A model generated the notes under the pieces. It did no database searches, had not been told where the DNA came from, and saw only the letters and a program-made list of their open reading frames with translations. Source: a virus (lineage: Duplodnaviria; Caudoviricetes). From it: a stretch of 31,134 nucleotides of DNA. Location: IMG/VR virus record IMGVR_UViG_3300020043_008363, positions 1 to 31,134 of that record; one strand, given 5' to 3'. Shown here one piece after another: positions 1-31,134 of this stretch. Each line of letters begins with the position of its first letter. Positions within the stretch are counted from its first letter, which is position 1. Both the position numbers and the translations under genes were made by a program.

Positions 1-121
1 CACTGGCGACAGAGTTAAGCGCCGTCGCTGCATTGTTGACTAGCCCAGCCTGGGTGATCTGCGACGTGAAGGTGGCCATGTCCATGCCCGAGAGCACGGC
101 GTTCTCCACCTCGCCCTGAAC
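1..121. repeat. Terminal direct repeat, left copy (assembly overlap indicating a circular/complete genome)
   Basis: Bases 1-121 are identical to 31014-31134. The repeat lies inside an ORF that reads through the junction in frame. Confidence 0.97.
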
Positions 122-2944
122 GCGGTTAGCGATCGTTTCAGATGCGACCTGGGTCAGAGCCGCGGACTTTGCGAACTGTTCCGTGGCCGCGGCAGCGAAC
201 TGCTCGGCGGTTCCGGTGACGGCGCCGCGCAGCACGGGCGATGCGGTGCGGACAGCGGACGTGCGCACGATCTCTTTTGCCACCTCGGCTTCCGTGAAGG
301 TGCGGACATCTTCAGCAGCGGCAGCGAGGATGGCTGCGTAGCGGGCCACGAAGGCGGCAAAGACAGCATCGCGCTCGCCTGCCTGCCAGCCGTCCTTAAG
401 TGCGTTAATAGTAGCTGCTCTATGTTCTTCTGCCACGGCCTCAATCTCGGGGCCAAGGGCTGCATCGACAGCGGCGCGGTCATCCGCCAGCGCAACGAAG
501 GCGACGACCTCTTCCTCGGGCCGCAGCGGGCGGTAGGTCAGAAACTCCTGCCCATCGCCGTCGACCACCAGCACGTCATTCTCTTCGCCGAGCTTCGCAG
601 CGCGCCGGATGGACCCCAGGGCAAAGTCGGTCACCAGCTTCTTCACCCACTGCATGCAGACATCGCCGCCGCGAAGGTTAAAGCCGTGCCATGATGGGCC
701 CTGCTCCTTGAACGATTTAGTCGTAGAGTGGCGGGGGTATTCGCTTGCAAAGTACTTAGCCAGGGCGAGGACGCGCGGCCATGCGAGACGCTTGCCTGCA
801 GCGAGGTCGCGGGCGATCATCATGGCGTTAGTGTCAGTGGTTTTGTTCTTGCCTGCCGCGCGGTGAAGTTCGATAGCGGCCTGGGCCAGCGCCTTCACTG
901 CTTCCGGTACCTGAACATCCGGGACATCAGCCAGCTCGGCCGCGGACAGGGCCGCACCATCGCGCTCTGAATCTAGAGCCGCTGTCTTTCTTTCCGCCCA
1001 TGCGCGGCCTGCATCGCCGCCCCACAGGTCCCATGCGATCCGGCCCGCAGAGGGGAAGCCTTCCTCGCCGCTATTGAAGCCAGTGGCTTTAGAGTCAGAC
1101 GCGTGCCGGTCAAAGTAGGCCTTCATGCGCCGCACCGTTTCAGCAGAAAGGCGCTTCTTCTGCGAGATGTCGCGTGCCCGGGCCACACCTACTGCGGTGC
1201 CGCCTCTCCCATGCTCACGCCGCCATGCAAGGGCTCGTTCGGCGATGGTCTTCATCTCATCCGTGGGATGGGTGTCGACATCGCTTTCAGCCAGGTCAAT
1301 GCCGCAGTCGCCGCCGCAGGCACATTCGCTGGCGGACACGGACGCGGGCGCAAACGCGGGCGACTCGCCGATGTTTGCGGGGACCTGAATGTTAGTGCCG
1401 ACGGTGACCGTGCCATCCGGCGACGGGGGCGCGGGCTCCACGGACGGGGGCGGTTCCGGCGGCGGTTCCGGGGGCGGCTCCACAGGCGCGGGCGCAATAG
1501 GCGCCGGCGCGGGGGCCGGTACCGCGGCAAGCTGCGCCTGCACCATGGCGCGGGCGTTCGCTTCACTAATGCCCGCGGACTGGAGCAGGATGACAGCGGC
1601 TTCGGGGGCGACAGGGGCCGGGCCACTCATCGACGTCAGAATCTGCTGCGCGATCTGCAGCGAGCCAACGAGCAGGGGCGCGGGCGTGTCCGCGGTGACC
1701 TCGGGCTGCTGCTCTTTTGGAAGCTCGGGTGCGCCAATGACGCGACGAGCCCACTCTTCATCGCCAGGGCCTTTAGTAATAAGACCGGCCTGCACACCCT
1801 GAACGTAGGCAGCGTAGCCGTCAAGGCCCGTCGTCATCTGCGCAGCCTGCACGCGGAGGATGGGCATGCGGCCTTCATATCCGACCGCGCGTGCGAGCCA
1901 GCTAAACATGCCGCGGCTGGCGCGTTCAAAGATACCATCGACCCAGGCTCGCGCCTTTCTTCCGGCAGCGTCGTCGATGGTCTGTGCCATGGCACGAGAT
2001 CCAAACTGCGAGATGCCGGAGAGGTTATCGTTAAGCATGCGCTGGATGACCGTGTCCCAGTAGGTCAGCTGCGCGATCACATCCGGCCCGGTGCCGGACG
2101 GATACTTCATCTCCACGTCGACCTCTTTAGGTCTAAGAAGATACTTTCGCACGCCGTCCTGGAACTGGCCCGCGATCTCGTTCATCGCATTGATGTCATC
2201 CGTGGAGACGGACGGCCCGTAGCTGATGTCAAGGAAGCCCCACGATTGCTGGTTATAGATACCGGCGTTAAGCGCGGTCTGCTTCCAAAGCTCATAGGGC
2301 TGCAGCAGCGAGCGCAGGATGGACCGGCCTTCCCACTCACCCGCGGTCGCCGTGCCGTGTACAACGTGAACAAGGTCACTGCCGTCGATGTTTGCGTAGC
2401 CGTTGCCCGTGGAGAACTGCACGCCAGCAAGGAAGTAGCCCTCGGGCCGCCACAGCATGACAGACTGGTGCGCCACTGGGTACCACTCCACGCCGCCGCT
2501 GGGCAGCAGGCGGGGAAGCATGAGGCCGAAACCCATGAAGGCGTCGTAGATGGGATACTGCCAAAGCGCGTTCGCGCCCTCCAGCGTGCCATCGAAGACG
2601 ACCGCCTCATCAATCGCGCAGCGCTGGCACAGGTCGATGAAGGCCTGCTCTTCCGCGGTGGGCGGGTTAGGGTGCGGCCAGCAAACTTCTTTAGGCAGCG
2701 ATGCAGCTTCCGTGATGGCCCAGTAGACGGCCGCGGAAATGCCGCCGTGGGTCTGCATCATCTCCTGGTACTTGCCCGAGAGCGAGCCACCGGTGCCGCG
2801 CCGCTGGTATGGCCCGAACGTTGGGTTGGGGTCGGCATTAGGCAGGCCCGCCCTGAAGTTCTGCACGCCCATGATGCTGACGCGCTCATCCGCTGCCGCG
2901 TAGCTGATTGGATTACCGCGGCTGTCAAGAAGGGGGCTTACCAT
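1..2944 (-). CDS. Portal - Pro-rich linker - 2x 'LWGGD' domain - MuF-like head morphogenesis fusion, 5' part (continues across the junction to 30769; ~1062 aa total)
   Basis: ATG at 2944 overlaps the terL end (ATGGTAA). Manual translation MVSPLLDSRGNPISY...WEGRSILRSLLQPYELWKQ...FGSRAMAQ... is open to the window edge and in frame with 30769..31122. Position after terL and the GRSILR and GSRA motifs resemble Mu gp29/DUF935 portals. It is absent from the ORF track, probably because it has no stop before the edge. Confidence 0.85.
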   Translation of the reverse strand, partial: MVSPLLDSRGNPISYAAADERVSIMGVQNFRAGLPNADPNPTFGPYQRRGTGGSLSGKYQEMMQTHGGISAAVYWAITEAASLPKEVCWPHPNPPTAEEQAFIDLCQRCAIDEAVVFDGTLEGANALWQYPIYDAFMGFGLMLPRLLPSGGVEWYPVAHQSVMLWRPEGYFLAGVQFSTGNGYANIDGSDLVHVVHGTATAGEWEGRSILRSLLQPYELWKQTALNAGIYNQQSWGFLDISYGPSVSTDDINAMNEIAGQFQDGVRKYLLRPKEVDVEMKYPSGTGPDVIAQLTYWDTVIQRMLNDNLSGISQFGSRAMAQTIDDAAGRKARAWVDGIFERASRGMFSWLARAVGYEGRMPILRVQAAQMTTGLDGYAAYVQGVQAGLITKGPGDEEWARRVIGAPELPKEQQPEVTADTPAPLLVGSLQIAQQILTSMSGPAPVAPEAAVILLQSAGISEANARAMVQAQLAAVPAPAPAPIAPAPVEPPPEPPPEPPPSVEPAPPSPDGTVTVGTNIQVPANIGESPAFAPASVSASECACGGDCGIDLAESDVDTHPTDEMKTIAERALAWRREHGRGGTAVGVARARDISQKKRLSAETVRRMKAYFDRHASDSKATGFNSGEEGFPSAGRIAWDLWGGDAGRAWAERKTAALDSERDGAALSAAELADVPDVQVPEAVKALAQAAIELHRAAGKNKTTDTNAMMIARDLAAGKRLAWPRVLALAKYFASEYPRHSTTKSFKEQGPSWHGFNLRGGDVCMQWVKKLVTDFALGSIRRAAKLGEENDVLVVDGDGQEFLTYRPLRPEEEVVAFVALADDRAAVDAALGPEIEAVAEEHRAATINALKDGWQAGERDAVFAAFVARYAAILAAAAEDVRTFTEAEVAKEIVRTSAVRTASPVLRGAVTGTAEQFAAAATEQFAKSAALTQVASETIANRVQGEVENAVLSGMDMATFTSQITQAGLVNNAATALNSVAS

Positions 2945-4191
2945 GTGGCGACCTTATGTGCTGTGTTAGTAGCAGGCGAAGTTATTATTCTGCGGCTGTC
3001 CGGCCTGATGCCAAGGTGCTCGGCGCCATGCCATGCGAGGGCGTGGGCACAGACGCAGTCATCGTGCGCACCTGATCCGCCGTTATAAAAGACTTTACCT
3101 GCTCTGACGGAATATTCAAAGGCCTCTAGTTCCGCTTGATGGGGTCCCACAAGAACGGATGTGCGTCCCTGCTGGATGGCCATTGCAAGTCCGACCATGA
3201 GCCCTTGTTTAGACGTATTAGTGAAAATGAAGGCTTCTGCTGCGATGCGGGCTTGCGTGAGCTGCTCGCCAACCGGGTCGCCGACACCCGTCGCATCGTA
3301 GTAGACCACCGCTTTACTTCCAGTTCCAACAATAGATCTAACATTTTCGACGATGTTTGAGTACGGAAGGCCATGCCACCTGTGGAATGCTGCGACCCGC
3401 CGATGCGAGTCTAGACCGATCAGGACGGTGTAATCGCGCTTTCTGGCGATGTCCAGGCCCCATACTCGCACGGGGTCCCCCGAGACGGGGGCGATGCAGT
3501 TTGCGATCGCGTCGATGCCGAAGGGGTTCCCGCCATCGTCCGATGGCTCGCAGTAGTATAGCTCCCTGAACACTGAATGAGGCAGTGAGCGGCGCGCCAT
3601 GTCCAGGTCGTTCTCATCCCAAAGGCCGGCCGCGATGGCGTCATCGGCCGTGATGCGGTGGTAGGCAAAGCCAGGCTCGCCGCTCTCGCCGCGGCGGCTC
3701 CACTGGTAGTGCCGGTTACTGCGGCCGCGCACGTTTCCGATCAGGCGCATGCGGCCGCGGGTCGCGGTGGTGGTACTGTACACAGCGTCCACGGCATCGT
3801 CCTTCATGCGGGATGCCTCATCTAGAACTACTGAATGGACGGCCGAGCCGTAGAGATTATCCGGTTTATCAGCAGAGCGGAAGCTCCAGCGCCGGTCCCC
3901 GGGCGCGAGGATGCTGCGGTCGGACAGCGACTGCTTAAAGCCAGCGTGTCCACGTACGAGCGACCACGCCAGCCTGAAGGCCATATCAGCCTGGGGGTAG
4001 ACGGGCGCGACCCACCAGTGCTCAGTCCCAGGCGAGGCCTTGAGTATCTCCCCTATTTGCCAAACCACGGAACCGATCGTCTTGCCGGCTTTAGTGGTAG
4101 ATTCGATGCAGCAGATGCGCGCCGGGTCGCACAGCGCGTCATACTGCTTTGCATAAAGCTTCGGCAGATTGAAGGTGACGCTATTCGTCAT
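2938..4191 (-). CDS. terL: Terminase large subunit
   Basis: Walker A-like STTKAGKT, Walker B VVLDEA, RNase H-like nuclease motifs GLDIARKRDYT, YDATGVG and HDDCVCAHALA. Confidence 0.95.
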   Translation of the reverse strand: MTNSVTFNLPKLYAKQYDALCDPARICCIESTTKAGKTIGSVVWQIGEILKASPGTEHWWVAPVYPQADMAFRLAWSLVRGHAGFKQSLSDRSILAPGDRRWSFRSADKPDNLYGSAVHSVVLDEASRMKDDAVDAVYSTTTATRGRMRLIGNVRGRSNRHYQWSRRGESGEPGFAYHRITADDAIAAGLWDENDLDMARRSLPHSVFRELYYCEPSDDGGNPFGIDAIANCIAPVSGDPVRVWGLDIARKRDYTVLIGLDSHRRVAAFHRWHGLPYSNIVENVRSIVGTGSKAVVYYDATGVGDPVGEQLTQARIAAEAFIFTNTSKQGLMVGLAMAIQQGRTSVLVGPHQAELEAFEYSVRAGKVFYNGGSGAHDDCVCAHALAWHGAEHLGIRPDSRRIITSPATNTAHKVATW

Positions 4192-10509: not shown

Positions 10510-10769
10510 GGATCGAAGATTACACTAAAATCATCAATGCGGACGTGGCCCACATCGCAGGCTTCGACCACTGCATCATCGGCATCACGGCGGAAGCCCC
10601 CTTCATCGCGGTCTACTCCACGCAGCGCGTAGTGAAGGAGATTGCGCGGCGCACGGGGCTATCGCTAGATGAAGCCGAGGACTTCTTTGAAGCCGAGATC
10701 CTCGGGCACGTGCCGGACATGGGCGTCCCTAAACCAATCTTTCTGGATGAGGTGTTCTTTGAGCCATGA
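10506..10769 (+). CDS. Conserved-looking phage hypothetical protein
   Basis: ATGA overlap start. The pattern GFDHCIIG..AVYS..EAEDFF..ILG..PIF resembles small proteins I recall from aquatic phages. Confidence 0.75.
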   Translation: MRIEDYTKIINADVAHIAGFDHCIIGITAEAPFIAVYSTQRVVKEIARRTGLSLDEAEDFFEAEILGHVPDMGVPKPIFLDEVFFEP

Positions 10770-11523
10770 TAAAACGCTGGATCCAGCCACCCGGAGCGCG
10801 CAGGGGGCATTCTATACCGCGGACGACGTCATCCTTAAGACGATCCAGCCGTTATTCTTAAATGCCCTGTACAGAAAGGCGGGGGAGGCTCCCCAGGAAG
10901 TTCTAGCCCTCCTGCCGGAGCTGACCTTCTTTGACCCCGCCTGCGGGTCCGGGAACTTCCTCATCAAAGTCATCGCCTGCCTGCAGGACCTTGAACGGAA
11001 GCTTGGCGGACCGCCGCGTGTCGGTATGCATCAGTGCTACGGCATTGAGATCGACCCTGTCGCAGCAGAACTTGCGCGCGCAGCGGGGGCAAACGTCATC
11101 ACGGGCGATGCGTTGGAGATGTCCTGGGACGCGGTGCTGCCGCGTGAGAAGTGCTCTTACATCATTGGCAACCCGCCCTTCATCTGCAGCAATGACACCA
11201 CGCAGAAGCAGAAGACGCAGGTCCGCAGCATCTGTGGCGCCGGCAATGTCGACTTCGTTAGCGCCTGGTTCGTAAAGAGCGCGGACTACATGCAGGGCGC
11301 GGCCGTGAAGGCCGCCTTCGTGGCCACTAACTCTATTACACAGGGCACGCAGGTCGCCCCGCTGTGGTCACAGATGTTCAAGCGGAAGATTGAGATCATC
11401 CACGCGCGCCGGTCCTTTGACTGGAAGGAGGCCGGCGTCCACGTGGTAATCCTATGCTTCTGCCATGAGGACCATGCCCCGCCCTCATCGCAGCGCCGCA
11501 TCGTCGACGGCGACGCGCCGTGA
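10759..11523 (+). CDS. MmeI-like N6-adenine DNA methyltransferase, catalytic part
   Basis: GAFYT, FFDPACGSGNFL (motif I), YGIEID, GDAL, IIGNPPF (motif IV), FVATNSITQG. Likely start is TTG 10759 after GAGGTG (or ATG 10747). Confidence 0.88.
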   Translation: MSHDKTLDPATRSAQGAFYTADDVILKTIQPLFLNALYRKAGEAPQEVLALLPELTFFDPACGSGNFLIKVIACLQDLERKLGGPPRVGMHQCYGIEIDPVAAELARAAGANVITGDALEMSWDAVLPREKCSYIIGNPPFICSNDTTQKQKTQVRSICGAGNVDFVSAWFVKSADYMQGAAVKAAFVATNSITQGTQVAPLWSQMFKRKIEIIHARRSFDWKEAGVHVVILCFCHEDHAPPSSQRRIVDGDAP

Positions 11524-12401
11524 TCTCCCCATACCTCATAGACGGAAGCCGCCTACCGGACCATCGGATGGTGGTGAAGAATGCAAGCCGCCCGATGAAC
11601 GGGCTTACCCAGGCATTCCTTGGCATTATTCCCATTACAGGGAAGCATTACTTTTTCACGCGCCAGCAGATGGCGGACTTCATCGCAGCCGAGCCGCTGT
11701 CGGAAAGCCTGTTCCGGCCGTTCATTGGTGCAGATGAGTTTCTGTACAGAAAGGAAAGGTTCATCCTCCACTTAGACGGTGTTGCACAGGACATGCTGGA
11801 GCAGATGCCATTAGTCCAAGAGAGGATGCATGCTGTCTCTAAACAGCGCAAAAACAGCAAAGCGCCTTCAATACAAAAGCTAAGTGCGCATCCGACTAAA
11901 TATGGACAGGGCCCAGTACCCACTACACCGTTCCTCGTTATACCTAAAACAAGTGGCGAGCACCGAGAATACCTGCCGATGGGCTTCTGCGCACCACCGA
12001 CCATGGCCAGCGATCTGGTCTTTATTGTGCCTAACGCCACAAAATCGCTTTTTGCCATACTCACATCTGCAATGCACATGGCCTGGATGCGACTCACTGC
12101 AGGGCGGCTGAAGAGCGATTACAGATACTCTATAAACAGCACCTACAACACCTTCCCCGTTCCGCCCCTCGCAGCTGGCGACCCCACGTTGGAAGAGCTT
12201 GGGCAGGCCGTTCTAGATGCGCGGGACGACAGGCCGCTGGCAAAGCAGTATGACCCACAGAAGATGACGCCCACCCTCCGCGCCGCGCACGCCGAGGTGG
12301 ACGCCTACGTGGACAGCCTTTACGTTCCGGAAGGCTTCACTTGCGAGGCGGACCGCGTCGTCCACCTGCTCACCAGATACTACGACATGGAGAAACGATG
12401 A
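11520..12401 (+). CDS. MmeI-like target-recognition and C-terminal domain
   Basis: ISPYL, RPFIGADEF, IPKTSGEHREYLPMGF, FAILTSAMHMAWMRLTAGRLKSDYRYS, YNTFPVP, LRAAH..D..VD..Y. GTG start overlaps the MTase TGA. Confidence 0.85.
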   Translation: MISPYLIDGSRLPDHRMVVKNASRPMNGLTQAFLGIIPITGKHYFFTRQQMADFIAAEPLSESLFRPFIGADEFLYRKERFILHLDGVAQDMLEQMPLVQERMHAVSKQRKNSKAPSIQKLSAHPTKYGQGPVPTTPFLVIPKTSGEHREYLPMGFCAPPTMASDLVFIVPNATKSLFAILTSAMHMAWMRLTAGRLKSDYRYSINSTYNTFPVPPLAAGDPTLEELGQAVLDARDDRPLAKQYDPQKMTPTLRAAHAEVDAYVDSLYVPEGFTCEADRVVHLLTRYYDMEKR

Positions 12402-27777: not shown

Positions 27778-28779
27778 TTAAGTGTTAATGTCGAAGATCT
27801 GGAAGCCGAACTTGTTCGCCGTGCCGCCAAGGACGGTGACGCCAAAGTCCGCTTCAAGGTGCATGCCCACGCCATAGGGGTTATTGACGGTGTAGGTCTG
27901 CACGACGCCGGTGGCCGCGGACGGGTCCGGGGTCATCGTCTGCAGGAAGCCGCTGTCGCCGTAGGCCTCGGCAACCTTGAACACCGAGAGGACGCCGTCG
28001 GCGATGACGGGCGCGCCGGTCGGATTCGTCGGAGTCGGAAGGTAGTGCGGGAAGACGACCAGTTCGATCGGGGCGATGAGCCGCGATGCGAAGAAGGTCC
28101 GCAGCTGAGAGAGGTCGGCGACGCCGGTCTTCGCGTAGCTGGTGCCGTCCGATGCCAGCGCGTAGCCCATGCCCTGCACCTGGAGGGCGCTAAGCAGGAT
28201 GTTCGCGGTGGAAAGGTTGCAGCAGGCGACCCAGCGGCCTTCCGTGATCGGCGAGCCGACCTGGGCAAGGCTGATGAGGCCGCTATTGATGGTGCCCTGA
28301 AGGTCCGCCGATGAGTTAGTGGCAACAGCGAGGGCGCCCGAGGAGATGTAGTTAGTGGCATCGCTGATGGCCGCCCCCGTGAGAGCGGCATGCAGCTGGA
28401 CGCCCTGCGTCTGCAGCTTCTGGCTGTAGGTCGCAAGGATGTCAGAGCCACGCGCCTCAAATTCGGCGATCTGCTTCATCGAGAAGTTCATCTGGCCAAG
28501 GCGGTAGATGCTCGCCTGGTAGGTGGACGACGTGATGCGCAGGCCGCCAGCCGAAGCAGGCGTGTCATAGCCAACGCCATTCTGGGGGTTGCCAGGGGCA
28601 CCGACCATAAGGGCATCGTTCTCGGCGAAGTAGTGGTAGAAGCCCTGCCGCGTGTCGACCTTGATGATGGGTGCGACCGACAGCGCCTCACGACCCGAGG
28701 AGCCGAAGCGAGGAAGGCTGATTTTCTGAAGTACACTGGGGCGAAGTGCCCCTGTATTAACGCCAATGGGAAGCGACAT
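27778..28779 (-). CDS. Major capsid protein
   Basis: 333 aa, GAGG RBS, follows protease/scaffold and decoration genes, followed by strong hairpins. Confidence 0.82.
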   Translation of the reverse strand: MSLPIGVNTGALRPSVLQKISLPRFGSSGREALSVAPIIKVDTRQGFYHYFAENDALMVGAPGNPQNGVGYDTPASAGGLRITSSTYQASIYRLGQMNFSMKQIAEFEARGSDILATYSQKLQTQGVQLHAALTGAAISDATNYISSGALAVATNSSADLQGTINSGLISLAQVGSPITEGRWVACCNLSTANILLSALQVQGMGYALASDGTSYAKTGVADLSQLRTFFASRLIAPIELVVFPHYLPTPTNPTGAPVIADGVLSVFKVAEAYGDSGFLQTMTPDPSAATGVVQTYTVNNPYGVGMHLEADFGVTVLGGTANKFGFQIFDINT

Positions 28780-28810: not shown

Positions 28811-29251
28811 TTAAGCGCCGCGGGTGGGCAGGAACATGATGGTGAACTGCTCGCCGGCATTGTTAGCAGGCGTGAGTGCGACACCGATGACCCAGTCACC
28901 CGAGGCAAGAGCGCCGGAAGCGGTCTGAAACCGGCCCGTGGCGTCGGCAGCGACGACCGTGCCAGCGGTGATCGCGGCACCGGAGAGAGCGCCGTCAAAG
29001 GCGCCCGCAAGGGTGTCGTAGATCTCGCAGTTAGTGGCCGTGCCGGGGTAGGTGCCGCTGTCGGAAGCAGCGCCAACGACGACAACGCCAACCGGAACAT
29101 CCTGGATGGAGTTAGCGACCTCAAGGACCGTCACGCCGTAGGTGGCCGTGTCCGCCGCGTTAATGGTAAGAATCTTACCTTCAAGGCCGGTGAGGTCGGT
29201 CTTGATGAGGTACTTCAGTGTGGACTTTGGATTAAGATCTGCAAGTGCCAT
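28811..29251 (-). CDS. Head decoration/cement protein (DUF2190-like)
   Basis: SGAAITAGTVVAADATGR..VIGVALTPANNAGE pattern. Lies between scaffold and capsid. Confidence 0.75.
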   Translation of the reverse strand: MALADLNPKSTLKYLIKTDLTGLEGKILTINAADTATYGVTVLEVANSIQDVPVGVVVVGAASDSGTYPGTATNCEIYDTLAGAFDGALSGAAITAGTVVAADATGRFQTASGALASGDWVIGVALTPANNAGEQFTIMFLPTRGA

Positions 29252-29286: not shown

Positions 29287-30441
29287 TTAGTGGGTGCCCT
29301 TGGTGGCGCGCTGCTCAAGTACCTCAGAGGGGATCTTTCCATCGCGGATCCAGCACCAGGCGGCGATCTGCGAGCAGCCTTCCTTCTCGGCAAGATTAGC
29401 AATAAGGCTGTACTGCTCATCGTCGGAAAGGGCGGCAAAGGCCTGAACCTTGCCCATCACCTCGCCGAGGTTAGCCGTGGTGGCCGCGGCGACGGGTGCG
29501 ACCGCGCGCGCGTTGACGACCGCAGCCGAAGCAGGGGCCAGGTCCTTCAGAAGCGCCGAGTAGCCAGCGCGGTCAGAGAGGTATGCGGCAGCCAGCGTGT
29601 TAAGCGCGGTGTCCGACACGCGGCGACCGGCAAGGTCAGCGCGGACGGCCTGGATCGCGTTCGCCGTGCGAAGGGTGGCGACCTCATCCTTAAGCGAGGC
29701 AAGCTCTTCGCCCCGCTTCATCGCGGCCTCATCCTCTTTCTTGGCCTCTACTTCGATGGCCATCTCCGTCGCAGGCGCGGCCTCGGCGGCAGCGGCTACA
29801 AGGCGAAGAAGCTCTTCCACCTTTGCGGGGTCAAGCCCCATGTCAGCACAGTACGCGGCAAGTTTCTCTTTCATCGTTACACCTTCTGAAAGTGATACCC
29901 CCCGCATCTCGGCGACGGGTACCTGTTGTGATTTAACCTGTGGAATGGTGACGAAGGACACCTCGCCGATGCCAAATAAGTATACTTCGTCTGAAGCTTC
30001 AGTGGTGGCTCCGGCGCGGATGTTAGGCGAGATATAGACCACCTCGCCGTCATCGAAGCGCTGGGCCCAGGTGGGCGACGTCACTTCAAGGCCAGCGTAG
30101 ACCATGCGGTCGCAGGGCTGGGCGATATCGTAGAGGGCGGCCTCATCGCGGGTCATCACGCGGATGCAGCGCATGTAGCCGGCTCCCATGCCGTTAGTCT
30201 CATGCTCAATCGCGATGGGAGGCGCATAAACAGTAAGCCATCTTTCCAGCGAGCTAACCCAGTCATCGAACTTGAACTGGAGCTTCTCCACGTCCGTGGT
30301 ATCGGCCGCCAGGTCCCACTTCGTTCCGCGCACGTGGATGGGTCCCTCGGGCAGCAGTGATACCCAGCGCAGCGTAGAGCCATCGCGCAGGTCGACGGTG
30401 GAGGCCTTCATGCGGGGCGAGATGGATGCTTTCTTTGCCAT
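29287..30441 (-). CDS. Prohead protease/scaffold (Mu gpI-like)
   Basis: WVSLLPEG, PIAIEHE, GAGY, GEVVYISP protease motifs and a coiled-coil C-terminal half. Possible internal start at 29874. Confidence 0.8.
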   Translation of the reverse strand: MAKKASISPRMKASTVDLRDGSTLRWVSLLPEGPIHVRGTKWDLAADTTDVEKLQFKFDDWVSSLERWLTVYAPPIAIEHETNGMGAGYMRCIRVMTRDEAALYDIAQPCDRMVYAGLEVTSPTWAQRFDDGEVVYISPNIRAGATTEASDEVYLFGIGEVSFVTIPQVKSQQVPVAEMRGVSLSEGVTMKEKLAAYCADMGLDPAKVEELLRLVAAAAEAAPATEMAIEVEAKKEDEAAMKRGEELASLKDEVATLRTANAIQAVRADLAGRRVSDTALNTLAAAYLSDRAGYSALLKDLAPASAAVVNARAVAPVAAATTANLGEVMGKVQAFAALSDDEQYSLIANLAEKEGCSQIAAWCWIRDGKIPSEVLEQRATKGTH

Positions 30442-30448
30442 GTGGTGC

Positions 30449-30477
30449 TTTATGTACAGGTGAAAGAGGGTTTGCAA
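30449..30477 (-). promoter_or_regulatory. Candidate promoter for the protease-capsid-tail operon
   Basis: Minus strand reads TTGCAAacCCTCT...TGTACATA, resembling the 12888 promoter (TTGCAAtgCCTCT...TACATGTA). Confidence 0.45.
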
Positions 30478-30539: not shown

Positions 30540-30776
30540 ATGACTAGGCGCCAGAAAGAGATATATTCCCTCCTCCTCTCCGCACACCACATGGGCATCG
30601 ACCTGTCCCCAGAAGCGATCGCAAAGCGGACGGCGGCCTGGGGCAAGCACGCGGTACGCAGCGAGCTATTCACCATGTTCAATGAGGGCATCGTCACAGG
30701 CGTGGTGAAGATCGGTGGTTCGCACCCGGACCGGTACCTTCTTGAAGGGTGCCCGTGCCCGTGGTGCGCTAAATAG
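30540..30776 (+). CDS. Small winged-HTH-like protein with C-terminal CxCxxC
   Basis: MTRRQKEIY..LSPEAIAK..GIV resembles the LexA N-terminal wHTH. Ends GCPCPWC. AGGA upstream. Fills an otherwise empty gap. Confidence 0.65.
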   Translation: MTRRQKEIYSLLLSAHHMGIDLSPEAIAKRTAAWGKHAVRSELFTMFNEGIVTGVVKIGGSHPDRYLLEGCPCPWCAK

Positions 30777-31134
30777 TACCAAACTCGGCGAACCATCCGC
30801 AGCGGCAGTTCCCGCGGCCCTGGCAGTTAGGGTCCGGCAGTTCGGGGATGACCAGCTGGCCCGCGTTAATCCAGTCTTTCACCATGATGATCTGCCCGTC
30901 GGCCTGCTCGCAGACATCGCATCTATTTTTATCCGGGATGCTGGAGCGGATGAGTTTGGTGGGCACCATGTTGGAGATGGTGGGCGCGGCCGCGTATGCG
31001 TTAGTGCGAGCGGCACTGGCGACAGAGTTAAGCGCCGTCGCTGCATTGTTGACTAGCCCAGCCTGGGTGATCTGCGACGTGAAGGTGGCCATGTCCATGC
31101 CCGAGAGCACGGCGTTCTCCACCTCGCCCTGAAC
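30769..31134 (-). CDS. C-terminal MuF/SPP1-gp7-like part of the portal fusion
   Basis: DKNRCDVC...DG...PDPNCQGRGNCRC resembles the MuF Cys motif. In frame with 1..2944 via the terminal overlap. Confidence 0.8.
   Translation of the reverse strand, partial: VQGEVENAVLSGMDMATFTSQITQAGLVNNAATALNSVASAARTNAYAAAPTISNMVPTKLIRSSIPDKNRCDVCEQADGQIIMVKDWINAGQLVIPELPDPNCQGRGNCRCGWFAEFGTI
31014..31134. repeat. Terminal direct repeat, right copy
   Basis: Identical to 1-121. Confidence 0.97.

Follow-up and report, generated by a model that had tools for sequence, protein, structure and literature searches.

We analysed a 31,134-nucleotide stretch of DNA from a tailed phage (IMG/VR virus record IMGVR_UViG_3300020043_008363, positions 1 to 31,134; hereafter the window). 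We found that a single open reading frame (ORF) encodes a portal protein and a MuF-like protein with two related copies (X1 and X2) of an unnamed helical domain, X, inserted between them. Short motifs at the module borders make it likely that the X domains are cut free by the phage head protease and not left tethered to the portal.

The window carries a 121-bp direct repeat at both ends. When the 31-kb genome was closed at this repeat, one minus-strand ORF of 3189 nt was obtained, running from an ATG at 2944 to a stop at 30769-30771 and encoding 1062 amino acids (aa). An earlier interpretation based on the letters of the window (the sequence-only reading) had proposed a circularised ORF, and its coordinates, length and stop were exactly reproduced.

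1..121 = 31014..31134, no strand: terminal direct repeat of 121 bp, circularisation overlap
2..2944, minus strand: portal-X1-X2-MuF polyprotein, residues 1-981, running on across the terminal repeat
30769..31134, minus strand: the same polyprotein ORF, residues 942-1062 and stop, MuF core

The modules follow one another as portal (aa 1-410), a three-helix domain (~426-474), an Ala/Pro linker, X1 (555-662), X2 (673-777), long helices and the MuF core (942-1053). The sequence-only reading had given the order as portal, Pro linker, two related domains, helices and MuF, with the cargo located between portal and MuF, and both points hold. The polyprotein ORF was undivided and internal to the contig in 9/9 IMG/VR relatives (one of them without its 5' end), and it was also found unbroken as 120 protein clusters of 911-1090 aa. 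An assembly artefact or frameshift at the junction is ruled out by these unbroken relatives. The portal-region search gave 127 proteins, the best 120 of which were listed, and the family of 120 consists of proteins of 911-1090 aa above set thresholds for both portal and MuF scores. Shorter forms were sought among the matches, and the 13 found were all fragments on contigs of 3.5 kb or less, with no clear stand-alone portal. A search for read runs matching the window gave two only, sharing 5-7% of words, which is no evidence of habitat.

Residues 1-410 are a portal, with G20c/P23-45 as best match. A profile built from 89 family members gave six PDB sequence matches, all of them portals of G20c/P23-45/P74-26 (E about 6e-4 to 9e-4). 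A structure model was made from the relative P0006, a protein of 1048 aa with 96% identity to the window protein across the portal part (predicted local distance difference test, pLDDT, 75.8; predicted template modelling score, pTM, 0.39). This model gave 78 Foldseek matches at E<=0.001 (best 2.6e-9), those listed being portal, neck or connector entries. Its residues 20-412 aligned with 6qjt over 358 positions (Z 19.4; root-mean-square deviation 8.1), in agreement with the portal fold predicted earlier for the N-terminal ~400 aa. The window protein itself gave no match to Portal_Mu (PF06074); relatives of the same layout at 25-29% identity passed the cut-off (E 1e-8 to 1e-10). The polyprotein directly follows the large terminase and is the sole portal of the genome, no second portal or second MuF being found in the window.

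1715..2944, minus strand: portal domain, aa 1-410, G20c/P23-45- and Mu-type (profile, Foldseek and structural alignment)
1523..1669, minus strand: small domain of three helices following the portal core, aa ~426-474 (model of P0006)
1400..1519, minus strand: low-confidence Ala/Pro linker (model of P0006)
1304..1324, minus strand: Cys cluster, aa 541-547, missing from the closest relative
122..577, minus strand: long helical region leading into MuF, aa ~790-941 (model of P0006)

Judged from the model, the three-helix domain is possibly the crown of the portal. The sequence-only reading had also counted the Cys cluster and the EPPP repeats of the linker as parts of the system, and both proved incidental. 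EPPP repeats were found in 2/120 relatives; a C-x-C cluster stands before X in 5/120, after X2 in 38 and nowhere in 77. A conserved metal-binding Cys cluster was rejected, its position being kept in too few of the 120.

The C-terminal end is MuF-like, as had been proposed. It matched PF04233 at E 3e-6 (28.4 bits, just below the cut-off of 29.6), and a CxxC...CxC cysteine motif was present at this end in 119/120 relatives. MuF terminates the protein in all 120, with no variable toxin domain C-terminal to it. No strong ribosome-binding site was found for an internal restart at MuF; the main start is without one too, so this does not speak against such a restart.

The two middle domains are homologous, in keeping with the claim that they are related: X1 and X2 share 25% identity (E 1e-5), with a profile-profile probability of 97% (E 1.7e-11).

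959..1282, minus strand: X1, aa 555-662, canonical copy of an unnamed ~105-aa helical domain, optional cassette (part of phrog_2859)
614..928, minus strand: X2, aa 673-777, diverged copy of X (RGGT loop and RH pair lost)

The X1 match was limited to part of phrog_2859, a PHROG without assigned function. No credible Pfam match was obtained for any of 100 X sequences, and NCBIfam and PDB assignments gave none for X either. X was modelled as a helical domain with pLDDT 96.5. No known fold was found for it by PDB sequence match or by Foldseek at E<=0.001; the best wide structural alignment reached Z 5.4, to generic helical bundles, which does not of itself prove a new fold. The ESM Atlas returned unnamed viral clusters at 0.96, and DUF6321/DUF5824 at 0.85-0.86 as leads only. 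We also tested a likeness of X to DUF3140 (PF11338). None of the 100 X sequences matched it, and profile-profile comparison with 30 DUF3140 sequences gave a probability of 0.7-1.2%, with scores of 15-17 against shuffled maxima of 18-19. DUF3140 was searched for in 5, 121 and 5 other genomes and not found.

Arg and His residues and Gly-rich loops are invariant in X, and a Gly-Gly-Thr is conserved. Diverged copies occur in several lineages, with the RGGT and RH residues gone and the GGD core retained. X2, which is present in nearly all relatives despite the loss of its RGGT loop and RH pair, may be a relaxed structural copy, a guess that goes with the one on the function of X given below.

X1 is optional. 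It is present in 56/120 relatives and missing from 64, and four sets of identical portals hold both X1+ and X1- members. In the four pairs compared at the DNA level, X1 is cleanly delimited and in frame, a block of ~320-340 nt whose ends share a 5-nt overlap. Its presence changed 24 times on the portal tree of 121 rows, with at least 18 changes forced by strong branches (shuffled mean 39.7). X1 is also the most conserved module, with 77% mean identity against 72% for the portal. Pairwise distances of X1 and portal were poorly correlated (rho 0.15), yet the X1 tree tracks the portal subclades (7 changes, minimum 6, shuffled 33.5). The latter result led us to reject X1 as a freely spreading mobile element; a long-standing history of repeated losses, or of alleles exchanged between close relatives, fits it better and appears more likely. 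The sequence-only reading had asked whether the cargo varies in kind. In this clade it does not: the slot holds X-family copies only, one or two of them, and no other cargo type was found.

Beyond this clade, X forms a family of 4,982 clusters at 50% identity. Domains were scanned in 90 cluster representatives taken from the best 150 of these. A head-assembly domain was borne by 49/90 (S78 or Clp-type protease, four portal families, capsid or MuF); 31 had no domain match and 10 had other domains. X is itself an accessory domain fused to virion head proteins (portal, protease, capsid and MuF fusions), and we regard it as a passenger able to join any protein of the head interior. Among predicted viral structures (62 matches), X fusions were labelled XkdF, Dps, HAD and ParB. 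X was present in 28 phage records, including S-CBS1, S-CBS3, S-CBS4, Roseobacter CRP phages, PaBG and HRTV-4. HRTV-4 gp30 (AGM11123.1) carries X at aa 467-564 (70 bits), between the portal and the MuF-like end. Three HK97-type portals (P0007, P0036, P0074), an unrelated portal lineage, show the layout portal, X, diverged X, MuF. With HRTV-4 and the HK97-type portals, the portal-X-MuF layout has thus arisen on several portal lineages. A further HK97-type portal-X-MuF protein (L078:722-4000) has an intein within its MuF domain, and five large proteins (P0195, P0197, P0199, P0273, P0091) contain two to three X in tandem, two of them together with DUF5872.

In bacteria X is a free-standing gene of about 110 aa. 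We chose 26 stand-alone bacterial loci from 80 genome loci, and in 14/26 a Hva1-Tudor gene adjoins X (13 above 100 bits; 12 confirmed by Pfam). Hva1-Tudor was also fused with X in 7/90 of the scanned proteins. The other neighbours of stand-alone X were CsbD, PRC-barrel, BLUF, TspO, Cu/Zn superoxide dismutase (SOD) and MsrB genes, which we take to be general-stress genes. In five Bosea-like loci (L141, L143, L144, L147 and L155, near 5330) the X gene and a restriction-modification gene of the MmeI family are convergent; this is probably an insertion site specific to the lineage. Weak Hva1 profile matches (19-27 bits) adjoin DUF3140 genes in 5/30 actinobacterial loci (L173-L175, L178, L179). Searches of the openly available literature turned up no account of X or of its pairing with Hva1, an unnamed domain being hard to find by words; the 40 uncharacterised domains in the supplements of PMC5512222 could include X.

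We looked for signals at the module borders, which are low-confidence loops in the P0006 model. Each border of the cargo carries a candidate protease site, and the next head gene is a probable prohead protease.

1286..1294, minus strand: L-A-E border motif preceding X1 (aa 551-553), candidate protease site
926..934, minus strand: L-A-D border motif preceding X2 (aa 671-673), candidate site
584..592, minus strand: L-G-E border motif (aa 785-787), candidate site dividing X2 from the MuF part
29287..30477, minus strand: probable prohead protease and scaffold, next head gene (position, motifs, weak PHROG matches)

The pattern [LM]-[AGS]-[ED] was found before X1 in 54/56 relatives, before X2 in 116/120 and after X2 at 74/75 sites, the last count being restricted to the 75 sites located by the search pattern. 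Its background was 6.2% of random windows and 11/960 linker windows. A similar motif, L-[SA]-E, lies at the protease/scaffold joint in 16/17 proteins (the 17th is truncated). The copy in the window has five motifs, L-S-E at the joint and four in the scaffold half, as expected of a protease that cuts itself off and chops the scaffold. The T4 gp21 consensus is I/L-x-E. C-terminal processing has also been attributed to the Mu portal, for which we found no source. The available parts of papers on HFTV1, JBD30, MSTV1 and an ACA-phage, and of reviews, contained nothing on portal-MuF processing.

We read these results as follows. A single gene encodes one precursor that contains the sole portal and the sole MuF of the phage, separated by the two X domains. 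Portals are dodecamers with their C-termini inside the capsid, and we apply this established portal biology to the window portal as an assumption. The precursor would then nucleate the prohead as a dodecamer, with twelve X1-X2-MuF tails inside; the neighbouring head protease would cut it at the Leu/Met-x-Glu/Asp borders, and about twelve sets of X1, X2 and MuF would be left free inside the head. We consider this course of events somewhat probable. It departs from the sequence-only reading, which had the cargo tethered in the head: the border motifs suggest a predicted release instead. SPP1 loads only one or two copies of gp7 per capsid (PMC5576092), so a portal-MuF fusion would fix a higher dose. 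As to function, X may bind DNA or a nucleotide through its Arg, His and Gly-Gly-Thr residues and have a protective, stress-type role, as the bacterial neighbours suggest; this is our leading guess, offered tentatively.

Several observations weigh against this account. The border motif was defined after inspection of sequences that are related to each other, and it also occurs at conserved places that are not borders (portal aa ~321 in 119/121; aa 819-821 at a helix start). The protease gene had no Pfam or PDB match; against PHROG it gave weak matches (E 0.002-0.02), and against S78 profiles a probability of 1-6%, barely above shuffles. On the side of function, the net charge of X ranges from -6 to +12, half of the Hva1-X loci (7 of 14) come from Bosea and its kin, and no Hva1 was found in the window or the loci of its clade. 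Two phage copies lie outside head genes. Gene 148 of PaBG (L169:3893-4225) is a stand-alone X in a replication-gene region, between RNA 2'-phosphotransferase and topoisomerase genes, and the X copy of Vibrio phage 150E35-1 is found among non-head genes; X is hence not always a head protein. The record of PaBG gene 148 labels it 'putative DNA-binding protein', and Pfam did not bear out a 'DUF2945' label carried by the Vibrio phage 150E35-1 gene.

The polyprotein could instead stay whole, with X1, X2 and MuF tethered to the portal ring, where they would organise or hold the DNA end beneath the portal. The protease call rests on position, a conserved His/Ser and weak profile and PHROG matches, and this weakness favours a tether, as do the retention of the portal-MuF fusion in all 120 relatives and the binding of SPP1 gp7 to the portal in the capsid (PMC5576092). 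We nevertheless judge it unlikely, given the motifs at each joint and in the scaffold. Moreover, X is found on proteins that ordinarily undergo cleavage (proteases, scaffolds, protease-capsid precursors), so a portal anchor is not needed. If release is accepted, the freed X could be an injected anti-defence or host-takeover effector (e.g. a nucleotide-signal sponge), ejected with MuF and the DNA. Published effectors (2H, PBECR, Nudix, ART) do occupy the same slots, and X is small, highly conserved, optional and repeatedly lost or regained (the forced changes on the portal tree), with its invariant Arg and His residues and Gly-rich loops. Its strong conservation in phages whose hosts are unrelated, archaeal viruses among them, is, however, unlike an arms-race protein, and the bacterial copies lie among stress and housekeeping genes and not in defence islands, except for MmeI beside the Bosea copies. 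An effector role accordingly seems improbable to us.

X could also be a nearly neutral passenger, removed by cleavage and then degraded or lost with the scaffold, or else active in the cytoplasm late in infection, head genes being highly expressed and tolerant landing sites. The absence of X1 from more than half of the relatives, even between identical portals, would fit this, as would the recurrence of diverged copies and the existence of non-head contexts. Against it, no other part of the protein is as conserved as X1, and X lands overwhelmingly on capsid-interior proteins, and we find such a passenger distinctly unlikely. Our reading of released, protective X domains can be carried further. 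X would be an undescribed family, possibly with a new fold, of bacterial general-stress proteins (the Hva1-Tudor partner), added to portal, protease and capsid precursors in thousands of viruses, both aquatic phages and viruses of archaea. Released by the protease in the virion, it would guard the genome or condition the next host, a stress-protection kit and not a weapon, carried as an in-frame cassette toggled between protease sites. In this full form the proposal is speculative and we hold it to be doubtful.

The head genes of the window run in the order small helix-turn-helix (HTH) gene, large terminase, polyprotein ORF, probable protease-scaffold, cement, probable capsid, neck and tail-tube genes.

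2938..4191, minus strand: terminase large subunit, immediately upstream of the polyprotein
28811..29251, minus strand: probable head decoration/cement protein (PF09956, E 0.003)
27778..28779, minus strand: probable major capsid protein (position and conservation only; no family match)

Between the protease and portal-MuF genes, and opposite to both in orientation, is a small LexA-type DNA-binding gene (30540-30776, plus strand). It was kept in the nine relative loci examined, with Pfam LexA_DNA_bind matches of E 4e-4 to 9e-4 in two relatives; in three loci (L014-L016) a C5 DNA methyltransferase comes after it. At 10669-12401 (plus strand) two ORFs that overlap each other encode an MmeI-like methyltransferase and target-recognition domains; no part corresponding to a nuclease was seen.

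X is a large unnamed family among the common passengers of phage head proteins, with a confident model and no clear solved relative. Cultured carriers (S-CBS1, S-CBS3, S-CBS4, Roseobacter CRP phages, HRTV-4 and PaBG) make both cutting and function directly testable. If X protects DNA in the head, stress protection would join the reasons for which phages load proteins into capsids, and the border motif would give a cleavage rule for a divergent head protease.

The cleavage that we predict resembles that of large myoviruses. SPN3US gp245 cuts after A-x-E, with the portal among its substrates (PMC10052503), and the internal proteins trimmed by T4 gp21 remain within the head (PMC9958956). Short x-x-Glu border signals, a portal substrate and retention of the freed proteins in the head are the points of likeness. 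In SPN3US and T4 the cuts are measured, whereas the window is a 31-kb siphovirus-type genome in which cuts are predicted and would fall on the C-terminal side of the portal. MuF polymorphic toxins (Jamet et al. 2017, PMC5576092) likewise have MuF beside the portal and extra domains. They carry a variable C-terminal toxin on a separate MuF gene, whereas the cargo of the window polyprotein is N-terminal to MuF, belongs to one family and has no immunity gene that we could see. The pairing of Hva1_TUDOR (PF11160) with DUF3140 (PF11338) offers a parallel of another kind: the position next to Hva1 is occupied by X, both in bacteria and in head proteins of phages. A test for homology between X and DUF3140 did not show any.

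The sequence-only reading had presented the architecture as a candidate packaging and delivery system that was not yet described. Its portal, its MuF and the cargo slot between them stand. The Cys and EPPP parts do not, the tether is less likely than release, the kind of cargo is constant in the clade, and systems of this kind are already published. Portal-MuF fusions occur in Microbacterium phage clusters EA3/EA5/EA8 and EB (PMC7302621), which resemble the window in having portal and MuF in one gene; they differ in portal lineage, with no inserted cargo in the description available. Polyvalent or head-fused effectors have been reported in which PBECR, 2H, InPase, Nudix or ART domains are joined to portal, MuF or protease, and their packaging has been proposed (Iyer et al. 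2017, PMC5512222; 2022, PMC9503650; Zhang et al. 2012, PMC3482391). These are accessory domains on head proteins, like X; the cargoes named there are enzymes, whereas X has no known fold or catalytic signature. The same order of portal, X and MuF-like end is found in gp30 of the cultured halovirus HRTV-4 ('Portal and Mu gpF-like protein'). It differs in having one X copy and an unrelated archaeal-virus portal, and X is unnamed in its record. Portal-MuF fusion and head-fused cargo are known already, and the interest of the window lies in the unnamed X family.

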